A DNA stretch of 64,000 nucleotides, taken from the NCBI RefSeq assembly GCF_003334315.1, contig NZ_QOWR01000007.1; one strand, 5' to 3'. Of the stretch, positions 51,544-55,736 are shown in pieces. The notes beneath the pieces were generated by a model. It saw only the letters and a list, made by a program, of their open reading frames with translations. It had not been told where the DNA came from and searched no databases. The DNA is from Escherichia coli (lineage in GTDB: Bacteria > Pseudomonadota > Gammaproteobacteria > Enterobacterales > Enterobacteriaceae). Every line of letters begins with the position of its first letter. Position 1 is the first letter of the stretch. A program made the translations under genes and the position numbers.

Positions 51544-53199
51544 TTACTTCTGTAACCACCAGACAGCCTCAAAAGGCCGTAAAGTCATGGCACAGGGTTG
51601 TGGTGAGGCTTCTTCGTAGTTATGCATCACAAGCTGCCAGTTGCCGCGCATTTGCCCTGGCTGCCAGGGTTGGATCTCACGGCTAAGGTTGGCAATGACC
51701 AGCAAGGTTTGCCCCTTCCATTCACGGCGATAGCACCACAATACAGGGCTGTTTGGCAGCAGATCCTGGTAATTGCCCCATGTCAGGATGGCTTCTTGCT
51801 TACGCAGTGCGATTAACTTTTGGTAGGTGTAAAACACCGAGGAGTCATCGGCCAGCGCGGCTTCTACGTTGATTTGTTGATAGTTATCGCCCAGGCCAAT
51901 CCACGGTTCGCCAGCCGTAAACCCGGCATTATCGCCGTTGCTCCATTGCATGGGCGTGCGGCTGTTGTCACGGGATTTACTGGCGAGGATTGCCAATAAC
52001 TCGTCGGCATCACGACCATCGTTGCGCAGCTCGGCAAACATATTGAGGCTCTCCACGTCGCGATAGTCAGTAATGCGCGTGAAATGCGGGTTGGTCATGC
52101 CAATCTCTTCGCCCTGGTAGATATACGGCGTTCCCTGCATGCCATGCAGCACCATCGCCAGCATTTTTGCCGCAGGCACGCGGTATTCACCTTCATCACC
52201 AAAGCGAGAAACAATGCGCGGCTGATCGTGGTTACACCAGAACAAGGCATTCCATGCCACGTTGTGCATTCCTTGTTGCCAGTGGCGGAACAATGTTTTC
52301 AACGCCACAAAGTCAGGTTTAGCCAGCGTCCATTTTTCACCACCGGGATAATCGACCTTCAGGTGATGAAAATTAAAGGTCATCGACAATTCACTGCCTG
52401 TCAGTGCCGCGTATCGCTGGCAATGCTCAAGGCTGGTGGAGGACATTTCACCTACGGTCATTAACCCGCGTGGCGTAAACACATCGCGGTTCATCTCGTG
52501 CAAAAACTCGTGTGCTCGTGGCCCGTCGGTGTAGAAGCGACGCCCGTCGCCATCCAGGTCTTCAGGGAAACGCGGGTCTTTGGAGATCAGATTCACCACA
52601 TCCAGGCGCAACCCGTCGACCCCACGATCGGCCCAGAATTCACAGACTTTTTTCAGCTCTGCGCGTACCGCTGGATTCTCCCAGTTGAGATCCGCCTGTT
52701 CTGGTGCAAAGAGATGCAAATAGTACTGTTCGCTTTCCGCATGCCAGCGCCACGCACTACCGCCAAATTTTGAACGCCAGTTGTTCGGTGGCGTTTCTGG
52801 TTCGCCATCGCGCCAGATATAAAACTGGCGGTAAGGGCTTTCTTTGTTCAGCGCCTCGCGAAACCAGGCATGTTGGGTAGAGGTATGGTTAAACACCATA
52901 TCGAGAATGATACGAATCCCGCGCGATTTTGCCTGCGTCACCAGTTCGTCAAAATCGTCCAGCGTGCCGTAGATGGGATCAATCGCCGTATAGTTCGCTA
53001 CGTCGTAACCGTTATCGACCTGGGGAGAGATATAAAAGGGGGTTAGCCAGATGGCATCAACGCCCAGTTTATGCAGATAGTCCAGGCGTTGGATAACGCC
53101 ACGTAAATCGCCGGTGCCGCTACCCGTGGTGTCCTGAAAACTCTTTGGATAAATCTGGTAGATAACGCCGTTTTGCCACCAGTGGGGAAGATTAGTCAT
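51544..53199 (-). CDS. treC: Trehalose-6-phosphate hydrolase
   Basis: Track ORF 51544-53346 trimmed to MTNLPHWWQNGVIYQIYPKSF start (551 aa); GH13 alpha-amylase family. Confidence 0.95.
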   Translation of the reverse strand: MTNLPHWWQNGVIYQIYPKSFQDTTGSGTGDLRGVIQRLDYLHKLGVDAIWLTPFYISPQVDNGYDVANYTAIDPIYGTLDDFDELVTQAKSRGIRIILDMVFNHTSTQHAWFREALNKESPYRQFYIWRDGEPETPPNNWRSKFGGSAWRWHAESEQYYLHLFAPEQADLNWENPAVRAELKKVCEFWADRGVDGLRLDVVNLISKDPRFPEDLDGDGRRFYTDGPRAHEFLHEMNRDVFTPRGLMTVGEMSSTSLEHCQRYAALTGSELSMTFNFHHLKVDYPGGEKWTLAKPDFVALKTLFRHWQQGMHNVAWNALFWCNHDQPRIVSRFGDEGEYRVPAAKMLAMVLHGMQGTPYIYQGEEIGMTNPHFTRITDYRDVESLNMFAELRNDGRDADELLAILASKSRDNSRTPMQWSNGDNAGFTAGEPWIGLGDNYQQINVEAALADDSSVFYTYQKLIALRKQEAILTWGNYQDLLPNSPVLWCYRREWKGQTLLVIANLSREIQPWQPGQMRGNWQLVMHNYEEASPQPCAMTLRPFEAVWWLQK

Positions 53200-53248
53200 T
53201 ACGTTATTCCTGCAAATGCGAGGGGGCGCAATTGCGCCCCGAAGAAAA

Positions 53249-54670
53249 TTAAACAATATCCAGCGTGCCCAGGCGGTATTTCCGCTGATAGATAAACGAG
53301 GTGAGTACAATCGGGATGATGATGGCGATAACCATTGCCAGCGCAAATACCTGCCAGTAGCTCGGTTGAATCGAGAGAATTCCCGGCAGGCCGCCTACGC
53401 CGATACCATTCGCCATAACGCCGTTCAGGCCGCATAGTAATCCTGCCAGACCAGAACCAATCATCGCGCACAGCATCGGGAAGCGATATTTCAGGTTGAT
53501 GCCGTACATTGCAGGCTCAGTGACCCCAAGCCAGGCGGAGATAGCGGCAGGCACGGAGATCTCGCGTTCATTGTGCTTGCGGCTGGAAATGATAATGCCT
53601 ATCACGGCGGAGCCCTGAGCGATATTCGACAGCGCAATCAGCGGCCACACTGGCGTGCCACCCATGCTTTGAATCATCTGCAAATCAATAGCAAGGGTGG
53701 TCTGGTGTACGCCGGTGATCACCAGCGGCGCGTACAGGAAGCCAAACAATGCCGCACCAATCGGAGCAAAGCTGCCGGTCATCAGGTGACGTACCGCAAA
53801 GGCAACGCCATCGCCAATCATGCGACCAAACGGACCAATCAGCGCATGGGCGAGGAACACCGCGAGGATCAGCGAACAGACGGGCACCACCACCAGATAG
53901 AGGTAATCCGGTACGATGCGTTTAAGGCGAGTTTCAATAACGCCCAGTGCCAGCCCGGCTAACAGTGCCGGGATCACCTGTGCCTGATAGCCCACTTTGG
54001 CGATGCTGAACATGCCAAAGTCCCACACTTCCGGCAGCTGCTGCCCGAGCAGATAAGCGTTCATCAGCTGGGGAGAAACCAGTGTCACGCCAAGCACGAT
54101 ACCAAGGATCGGCGTGCCGCCCATTTTTTTCACCGCTGACCAGCAAATACCGACCGGCAGGTAGAAGAAGATCGCTTCACCGATCAACCACAGAAAATCG
54201 TAGATCGTTTGCAGGGAAGGGTACATTTGCGCCAGCGTCTGACCGTTGCTCATGGGCAAATCGCCGATCACATTGCGAAAACCGAGGATCAAACCGCCGC
54301 TAATCAACGCGGGCAGCAACGGGAAGAAGATCTCCGCGAAATGAGAGATCAACTGCTCATGCCATTTCATATTCTGCCGGGCGGCTTTTTTTACCTGCTC
54401 TTTATCAACCTGCGCCTGTCCGGTTGACGCTATTAGTGCTTGATAGTAATCACCCACGTTGGTGCCAATCACCACCTGAAATTGCCCGGCATTGGTGAAA
54501 CAGCCTTTCACCATGGGGAGTTGCTCAATTTCTTTCGGTCTGGCATTGGCCGGTTGGTTGAGGACAAAGCGCAGGCGAGTAATACAGTGGCTCACCGTCG
54601 CAATATTGCCGCGCCCGCCGACCAGTTCAATCAACCGATCGATATCCGTTTGGTTTATTTTGCTCATCAT
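53249..54670 (-). CDS. treB: PTS trehalose-specific EIIBC component
   Basis: 473-aa ORF MMSKINQTDIDRLIELVGGRGNIATVSHCITRLRF (EIIB cysteine) plus EIIC membrane domain. Confidence 0.95.
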   Translation of the reverse strand: MMSKINQTDIDRLIELVGGRGNIATVSHCITRLRFVLNQPANARPKEIEQLPMVKGCFTNAGQFQVVIGTNVGDYYQALIASTGQAQVDKEQVKKAARQNMKWHEQLISHFAEIFFPLLPALISGGLILGFRNVIGDLPMSNGQTLAQMYPSLQTIYDFLWLIGEAIFFYLPVGICWSAVKKMGGTPILGIVLGVTLVSPQLMNAYLLGQQLPEVWDFGMFSIAKVGYQAQVIPALLAGLALGVIETRLKRIVPDYLYLVVVPVCSLILAVFLAHALIGPFGRMIGDGVAFAVRHLMTGSFAPIGAALFGFLYAPLVITGVHQTTLAIDLQMIQSMGGTPVWPLIALSNIAQGSAVIGIIISSRKHNEREISVPAAISAWLGVTEPAMYGINLKYRFPMLCAMIGSGLAGLLCGLNGVMANGIGVGGLPGILSIQPSYWQVFALAMVIAIIIPIVLTSFIYQRKYRLGTLDIV

Positions 54671-54735
54671 AAAGCCCCATGGCAGATGACATTTTTGGTT
54701 GGCTGCAGAATATATTGCGCGGAAAAATTTAAAAA

Positions 54736-54749
54736 CGGGAACGTTCCCG
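54736..54749. promoter_or_regulatory. Perfect 14-bp palindrome in the treB promoter (candidate TreR operator)
   Basis: CGGGAACGTTCCCG read from sequence, between treR stop and treB start; LacI-family operators are palindromes of this type. Confidence 0.45.
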
Positions 54750-54788
54750 AAACGCAGCGAAGATCACAATTTATCGTTCAGGAAACGA

Positions 54789-55736
54789 TCAGGACAGGGT
54801 GGCGGGGATGATGATTTGTTGCGGTTCGCTGCGCCCGGTTACCTGTGCGATCAACTGGCAGGCCGCCTGGCGTCCAGCTTCGGCGTAACCAGGATCTACG
54901 GTGACGATCTCCGGATGAAGGAATTTCATTAATGGCGTATTACCGACGCTCGCCAGTTGCAAGGTGTCGATGCGTTGCTCTTGCAGGTATTTACTTGCGC
55001 CAAGTGCCAGCGTGTCGGTTGCGCACAGTAAGGCGGTAGTTTCAGGCGTAATCACTTTTGCTACGTTCTCATAGCCTTGCTTCATAGCAAGGCCTGGCAG
55101 AGCGGCAACGGGATGCAGTTTATGCGCTTTGCAGAACGCCAGGTAGGCTTCGTGACGTCGCTTCCCGGTCGTCACGTCACTATGCGGCACGCCGAGATAA
55201 CTGATATTACGATGCCCCTGGTCATACAGCCGTTGCATCAGGATCTTGATTGCCCCTTCGTCGTCATAACAGACCGAAGCAAAACCTTTTGCGTCACGCG
55301 CCAGCAGAACCAGCGATGACTGCCAGTGGGCTAACATTTCTTCTGTTATGCCAGTAAAACCGAACAGCACTACGCCGTCGATATTACGCCGTTTCAGCAC
55401 CCCCAAATGTTCGGCAACTAATTGTGGGGAAAACTGACTTTCCATCATGATTGGGTCGTAACCTTGTTCATAGAACGCTGGCAGCATGGTTTGAACGGCG
55501 AGATTTTCTGACAACGAATCCAGACGGGTAACAATGATGGCGACCACTTTATCGCTTTGCCCACGCATAGCGCGCGCAGAGCGGGAAGGGGAAAATCCAT
55601 GCTGATTCATCACTGCTTCAACACGCTCGCGGGTGCGCTGGCTCACGCCGCTTTCGTTATTCAGCACCCGGGAAACTGTAGATTTCCCCACGCCGCTTAA
55701 GCGTGCGATGTCTTTGATGGTCAGCCGATTTTGCAT
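54789..55736 (-). CDS. treR: LacI-family trehalose operon repressor
   Basis: 315-aa ORF MQNRLTIKDIARLSGVGKSTVSRVLNN (LacI HTH). Confidence 0.95.
   Translation of the reverse strand: MQNRLTIKDIARLSGVGKSTVSRVLNNESGVSQRTRERVEAVMNQHGFSPSRSARAMRGQSDKVVAIIVTRLDSLSENLAVQTMLPAFYEQGYDPIMMESQFSPQLVAEHLGVLKRRNIDGVVLFGFTGITEEMLAHWQSSLVLLARDAKGFASVCYDDEGAIKILMQRLYDQGHRNISYLGVPHSDVTTGKRRHEAYLAFCKAHKLHPVAALPGLAMKQGYENVAKVITPETTALLCATDTLALGASKYLQEQRIDTLQLASVGNTPLMKFLHPEIVTVDPGYAEAGRQAACQLIAQVTGRSEPQQIIIPATLS

Follow-up and report, generated by a model that had tools for sequence, protein, structure and literature searches.

The palindrome upstream of treB in Escherichia coli and its very probable role as the TreR operator

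What is the palindrome that lies between treR and treB of Escherichia coli, and which protein reads it? The question arises from a stretch of 64,000 nucleotides (the window, here and below) in which an earlier note had picked out a perfect 14-bp palindrome in the treB promoter, compared its form with that of a LacI-family operator and named it as the likely site of the repressor TreR. The palindrome is indeed there. CGGGAACGTTCCCG at 54736-54749 is an exact inverted repeat of seven plus seven bases (CGGGAAC followed by GTTCCCG) with CG at its centre. Its symmetry ends at 14 bp, where the flanking bases are A...A, and the window contains a single exact copy. The palindrome is very probably the operator of TreR, the LacI-family repressor encoded immediately upstream. 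This is not a new site; it is the TreR operator already known at the treB promoter (treBp) of E. coli K-12.

The tre locus and the treB promoter

The features on which the argument rests are the following, with coordinates in the window.

54736..54749 (no strand assigned): very probable TreR operator, the 14-bp palindrome CGGGAACGTTCCCG, from the exact sequence and its conservation
54737-54748 (centre between 54742 and 54743): TreR recognition core, GGGAAC joined to GTTCCC, invariant in 80/80 treB loci
54750..54771 (minus strand): predicted CRP-type 22-mer site, with the left half-site TGTGA at 54768..54764 and a weak right half, CTGCG
54730..54735 (minus strand): putative -35 slot TTTTTA, 17 bp upstream of the -10 and directly downstream of the operator, placed by spacing
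54707..54712 (minus strand): -10 hexamer TATTCT (TAnnnT across genera), at a fixed distance from the core; the same box is given in PMC2760140
54697 mapped, 54700 predicted (minus strand): treB transcription start, from 454 reads in PMC2760140 and from the conserved -10 respectively
54789..55736 (minus strand): treR, LacI-family trehalose operon repressor, 315 aa, by the TIGR02405 equivalog and RefSeq annotation
53249..54670 (minus strand): treB, PTS trehalose EIIBC transporter, 473 aa, first gene of the operon, by NF008236 and RefSeq annotation
51544..53199 (minus strand): treC, trehalose-6-phosphate hydrolase, 551 aa, second gene of the operon, by TIGR02403

TreR scores 590.7 bits against TIGR02405 (an NCBIfam equivalog with a cutoff of 357), TreB 974.6 bits against NF008236 and TreC 878.6 bits against TIGR02403 (cutoff 799). 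The identities of treR and treB agree with the RefSeq annotation of identical E. coli genomes. Both genes lie on the minus strand, separated by a spacer of 118 bp between the end of treR at 54789 and the treB ATG at 54670, and the palindrome sits inside this spacer with its centre 72 bp upstream of the ATG. The spacer is identical to that of E. coli K-12 MG1655 at 118 of 118 positions, with the palindrome at 4466246-4466259 of that genome (window coordinates equal MG1655 coordinates minus 4,411,510). Therefore, experiments made with K-12 apply to the site in the window. Within the species the surroundings vary little: of 5,426 complete E. coli genomes, 4,983 carry the 54 bp surrounding the palindrome at an identity of 99% or more.

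That the palindrome reaches 14 bp is no strong argument in itself. Perfect palindromes of 14 bp or longer number six in the window; 200 dinucleotide-preserving shuffles predict 4.98 +/- 2.15, and six or more were present in 38% of those shuffles. This means that 14-bp palindromy alone is not beyond chance, even though the number expected in any one spacer of 118 bp is only about 0.009. What lifts the palindrome above chance is its conservation and its fixed position relative to the elements of the promoter.

Where is that promoter? A sigma-70 consensus scan of the region detected none, so the -10 and -35 elements were placed from conservation and from the published transcription start. The missing match would be expected for an activator-dependent promoter, and the TTTTTA of the putative -35 slot is a poor match to TTGACA. 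A TTTT run is conserved directly after the core in the alignment of 80 loci described below, and the TA...T of the -10 stands at a fixed distance from the core across loci. The treB start was mapped at -27 from the ATG by six 454 reads (Mendoza-Vargas et al., 2009; PMC2760140, supplementary file 3), and the same file assigns the -10 box gcaaTATATTCTgcag to it. The -10 inferred here from conservation, TATTCT, is the box given for that mapped start. The predicted +1 at 54700 is 7 nt after the -10 and the mapped one is at 54697, which leaves an uncertainty of 3 nt and puts the centre of the operator at -45.5 (mapped) or -42.5 (predicted). The operator is thus situated just upstream of the -35 slot, abutting the CRP-type site, and not over the transcription start.

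The CRP-type 22-mer directly abuts the 14-mer, and its centre is 18 bp upstream of that of the operator. Across the aligned loci TGTGATC is invariant and held at a fixed offset of 20 nt from the core (81 of 81 rows). Depending on the start used, the centre of this predicted site is at -63.5 or -60.5, in the class I range (near -61.5), with a right half-site that is weak. CRP regulation of treBC has been reported (PMC5888115).

The form of the palindrome is also that of a LacI-family operator. According to published rules for this family (PMC4052901), operators are inverted repeats of even length with CG in the middle, and they usually lie 30-140 bp from the start codon. The site in the window is an even repeat with a central CG at 72 bp from the ATG, and it is upstream of an operon with the repressor gene adjacent to it.

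Conservation of the site among Enterobacteriaceae and beyond

If the palindrome is the TreR operator, how far does it follow treB and TreR? To cover the family, 80 treB loci were sampled from contigs representing one genome per species, in about 20 genera of Enterobacteriaceae. Their treB upstream regions were aligned without gaps on the 12-bp core, giving 80 unique rows. All 80 loci have the core, GGGAACGTTCCC, upstream of treB, centred 61-203 bp before the start, and all 12 of its columns are invariant across the 80 unique sequences. In the orientation of treB the consensus is tTGTGATC.tcGC...gTTT-C-GGGAACGTTCCC-a-TTTT-(13 variable columns)-a..g..TA.gcT. Hardly any information (about 0 bits) is left in the 13 columns that separate the T-run from the -10. 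For comparison, the TreR(1) regulon of RegPrecise comprises eight TreR sites in eight Enterobacteriales genomes.

The outermost pair of the palindrome behaves differently from the core. At its 5' position 78 of the 80 loci have C; at its 3' position 71 have A, eight have G and one has T. Judged by the aligned sequences, the perfect 14-mer is almost confined to E. coli. Most genera carry C...A instead, and even one Escherichia representative has the CCCA form. The earlier note had taken the perfect 14-mer to be the site. That view needs trimming: the 12-bp core of GGGAAC and GTTCCC is invariant, but the outer C/G pair is poorly conserved outside E. coli.

A treR match is present in the same locus as treB in 78 of the 80 cases and directly upstream of treB in 76. 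In two Enterobacter loci (L040 and L074) an insertion of 1.86 kb with ORFs on the opposite strand splits treR from treB. In both, the core and the T-run have stayed near treB, 78-80 bp upstream of it, with the end of treR about 1.79 kb away, and no copy of the core is left at treR. The predicted site segregates with the treB promoter rather than with the 3' end of treR.

The 1.86-kb treR-treB insertion (637-2420 in L040, with two ORFs of 159 and 230 aa) is also present in L031 and L032 besides L074, and the 159-aa product looks Hcp-like by eye. In the segment 543-680 of a Trabulsiella odontotermitis locus (L008), some 870 bp upstream of treR, a second TreR core lies 73 bp upstream of a treB-like 5' fragment (MLKINQQDIDKLIELVGGR...). 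The treB promoter and 5' end seem to have been duplicated here.

A search for close homologues was uninformative for the wider comparison, in that the TreR matches listed were all at least 85% identical. Distant TreR proteins were found by a search of clusters formed at 50% identity and by exact-sequence look-ups of their contigs. In loci where TreR is 41-49% identical, the order treR-treB(-treC) is kept. In L082 (TreR 49% identical) and L087 (41%) the spacer contains TGGGAACGTTCCCA, at 78 bp upstream of treB in the former and 36 bp upstream of the treB ATG in the latter. In L083 and L084 (47%) the core is accompanied by TGTGA at the identical offset of 20 nt. Two near-copies, TGGGAACGATTCCA and TGGGAACGTTACCA, occur 47 bp apart upstream of treB in L085 and L086 (45%), a lineage whose two-operator arrangement differs from the single site of E. 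coli. On the strength of these predicted sites the wider TreR operator consensus is TGGGAACGTTCCCA, and the architecture of CRP half-site, operator and -35 is conserved, as judged by alignment, down to a TreR identity of about 47%. An autoregulatory TreR site upstream of treR was found neither in the window nor in the distant loci.

One contig, L081 (Logan SRR18107613), was left out of the distant loci as it is C-to-T converted. Every C of its treR-treB spacer is read as T, as in a bisulfite-like conversion of a Klebsiella-like tre locus. The gene called there does not translate to the query, and this entry of the public assembly collection is a data artefact.

The protein side of the comparison is equally constant. 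Six TreR orthologues with overall identities of 37-100% share invariant residues in the helix-turn-helix (V16, K18-V24 and N26) and in the hinge (S53, A54, R55, M57 and R58). The site is unchanged and so are the recognition helix (K18-V24) and hinge of the protein; in other words, an unchanged site goes with an unchanged reading head. The suggestion in the earlier note that the palindrome is the likely TreR site gains support from the 12-bp core in 80/80 loci, from the distant TreR loci and from the way in which the element tracks the treB promoter.

Terminator, Cra site or chance?

Although the TreR reading accounts for these patterns, a G+C-rich inverted repeat followed by a T-run on the transcribed strand is also what a Rho-independent terminator looks like. 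What if the palindrome acts mainly as RNA? In this scenario the treR transcript would form a hairpin (a CGGGA/UCCCG stem with an ACGU loop) followed by UUUUUAAAUUUUU, and this would be an intrinsic terminator that spares treBC. A terminator scan does flag the same element on the minus strand (five pairs including four G-C, with a loop of 4 nt and a T-run after it), and the hairpin is 40 nt downstream of the treR stop. The region between treR and the CRP half-site offers no other consistent terminator hairpin, with 3 of 81 loci terminator-like, and in the literature treR is outside the treBC operon.

However, several observations do not fit. The hairpin is weak, at -7.0 kcal/mol with z = -0.51 relative to shuffles, and in the CCCA form carried by most genera it reaches only -5.4 kcal/mol. 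All 12 core positions, including the four bases of the loop, are invariant and there are no compensatory changes. Moreover, in L040 and L074 the element and its T-run stay with treB where the upstream neighbour is divergent, which means that there is no co-directional transcript for the element to terminate. The L087 site at only 36 bp from the ATG and the two copies in L085 and L086 are also awkward for a treR terminator. Finally, Term-seq data (Adams et al., 2021; PMC7815308, supplementary file 1) have no minus-strand 3' end at the operator. This file lists 3' ends for treC and treB, but no minus-strand end from MG1655 4466176 to the entries beyond treR and, in all of its sheets, none assigned to treR, a gene that is weakly expressed. 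Set beside Rho-independent terminators, then, the operator differs by its 5-bp, -7 kcal/mol stem, the lack of covariation and the lack of a mapped 3' end. That the palindrome is mainly a terminator is very unlikely.

The same loci provide an internal control for what a true RNA hairpin looks like. The 49-bp spacer between treB and treC contains an 18-bp perfect palindrome, GGGGCGCAATTGCGCCCC, at 53223-53240 of the window (minus-strand transcript). It is kept in most Enterobacteriaceae with a variable loop and compensatory changes in the stem (GGGGTGC/GCACCCC, GGGGCCA/TGGCCCC), and the median MFE of the spacer is -18.4 kcal/mol. Among the Term-seq 3' ends of this region in the sheet consulted, the one with most reads (425,606, MG1655 4464728) corresponds to 53218, which is 5 nt past this stem and without a U-tract. 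The treB-treC palindrome probably forms an intercistronic hairpin by which the treB message is stabilised or ended. Unlike the operator, it covaries.

Three observations on transcript ends and leaders belong here. A minus-strand Term-seq 3' end with 47,785 reads maps to 54666 (MG1655 4466176), 4 nt into the treB ORF, and points to a leader RNA that starts at the treB promoter and is only about 32-35 nt long. In E. coli the sole hairpin in the 54755-54788 segment after the treR stop is A/T-rich, with 7 bp and -5.0 to -6.6 kcal/mol. A terminator belonging to treR alone had been expected between its stop and the CRP half-site, but just 3 of the 81 loci qualify, the median over the loci is -5.2 kcal/mol, and the argument was dropped.

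A milder version of the RNA idea would leave TreR its operator. The site might also act on treR transcripts as a weak insulator made of a hairpin plus U-run, and the A-to-G change at 54736 in the E. coli lineage (from CGGGAACGTTCCCA to the perfect 14-mer) might have been favoured for a fifth stem pair and not for TreR binding. That pair takes the hairpin from -5.4 to -7.0 kcal/mol, and the change moves the site away from the wider TGGGAACGTTCCCA consensus. This refinement is unlikely; what speaks for it is that no other consistent treR terminator was found.

Could another LacI-family regulator bind the palindrome, in addition to TreR or in its place? The most plausible candidate is Cra (FruR), whose motif ctgaAtCGaTtcag is likewise an even palindrome with a central CG, and a ChIP-exo study reported treBC as a Cra target that is co-regulated by Cra and CRP (PMC5888115). 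Binding at the palindrome would explain that observation. Yet when the TreR core and the Cra motif are aligned on the central CG, only 3-4 of the six positions per half-site are shared, and the invariant GGG/CCC arms of the core are absent from the Cra motif. In addition, the site follows TreR orthologues with an invariant recognition helix down to 41% identity. Binding by Cra at this palindrome is therefore very unlikely. Inspection of the treR-treB spacer (54671-54788) revealed no obvious Cra-like site. The hairpin after the treR stop was considered as one and rejected by eye, its TGAA-CG spacing being one base short of the Cra motif.

The idea that the palindrome is a functionless chance occurrence can draw on the count of such palindromes in the window, which equals chance, but it is refuted by conservation: all 80 loci have an unchanged core, distant lineages have it too, and its spacing to the CRP half-site and to the -10 is constant.

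TreR repression and its relation to known systems

With TreR as the reader of the palindrome, a mechanism can be proposed. By analogy with the LacI/PurR family, a TreR dimer would recognise GGGAAC in each half of the 12-bp core and place its hinge over the central CG. The operator stands between the predicted CRP site and the -35 slot, in a treB promoter that is weak and probably depends on CRP. Judging from this geometry, bound TreR would occupy DNA that RNA polymerase needs for region 4 and the alpha C-terminal domains next to CRP, and initiation at treBC would be blocked by this occupancy of the promoter. Trehalose-6-phosphate is the inducer of TreR (PMC3505978). According to the literature it is made as TreB imports trehalose and lowers the affinity of TreR for the operator, so that the promoter is released. 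Trehalose itself has been published as an anti-inducer; in its free form it binds to TreR but does not induce.

How does this compare with what is known for K-12? Horlacher and Boos are said to have footprinted, in 1997 (J Biol Chem 272:13026), a palindromic TreR operator immediately ahead of the treB -35, and direct, effector-sensitive binding of purified TreR was reportedly published for K-12 in the same work. The reported position of the footprint agrees with the geometry derived from the window. Nothing substantive separates the site in the window from the K-12 treBp operator; locus, sequence (118/118 in the spacer), regulator and inducer are the same. A full-text literature search did not find the 14-mer, and queries for a TreR palindrome or footprint gave no description of the operator. 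The sole solved TreR structure, 4XXH, covers residues 61-315, the effector domain, without the DNA-binding domain.

One discrepancy concerns the number of sites. According to PMC3505978, RegulonDB gives two operator sites for TreR at treBC, whereas the present analysis of the tre region, allowing up to three mismatches to the core, found one site only and no second. Elsewhere in the window, GGGGAATGTTCCCG at 269-282 has one mismatch to the 12-bp TreR core, and that mismatch destroys the central CG. It is about 145 bp upstream of an esterase ORF (422-1171), in what is apparently a divergent intergenic region. This near-match is probably due to chance, since by our own estimate about 0.14 such matches are expected per window.

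The comparison extends to operators of the LacI, PurR and CcpA type. The helix-turn-helix and hinge of TreR align with the family, and in our own alignment Met57 of TreR presumably takes the place of the leucine lever of the LacI hinge. The TreR site differs in that it is single, with no auxiliary looping site visible in the window. It also differs from lacO1 in position. lacO1 is over the transcription start, whereas the TreR site is upstream of the -35 and abuts the CRP site.

A more distant resemblance came from the full-text search for the 12-mer, which retrieved only a paper on CebR2 of Streptomyces. The CebR2 box of Streptomyces scabiei has the 14-nt consensus TGGGAACGTTCCCA (PMC9953190), identical to the TreR consensus of the distant gammaproteobacterial loci. 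However, CebR2 is a predicted LacI-family cellobiose regulator, and its phylum, effector and regulon differ from those of TreR. That the two have a box in common is probably due to the limited range of sequences open to LacI-family operators.

What does the site mean for E. coli and its relatives? It marks where trehalose-6-phosphate-responsive control acts on the operon for trehalose uptake at low osmolarity, which is textbook E. coli regulation. The gain is comparative: the 12-bp GGGAACGTTCCC core is the unit of recognition, held in a fixed register, and the perfect 14-mer is a lineage-specific detail.
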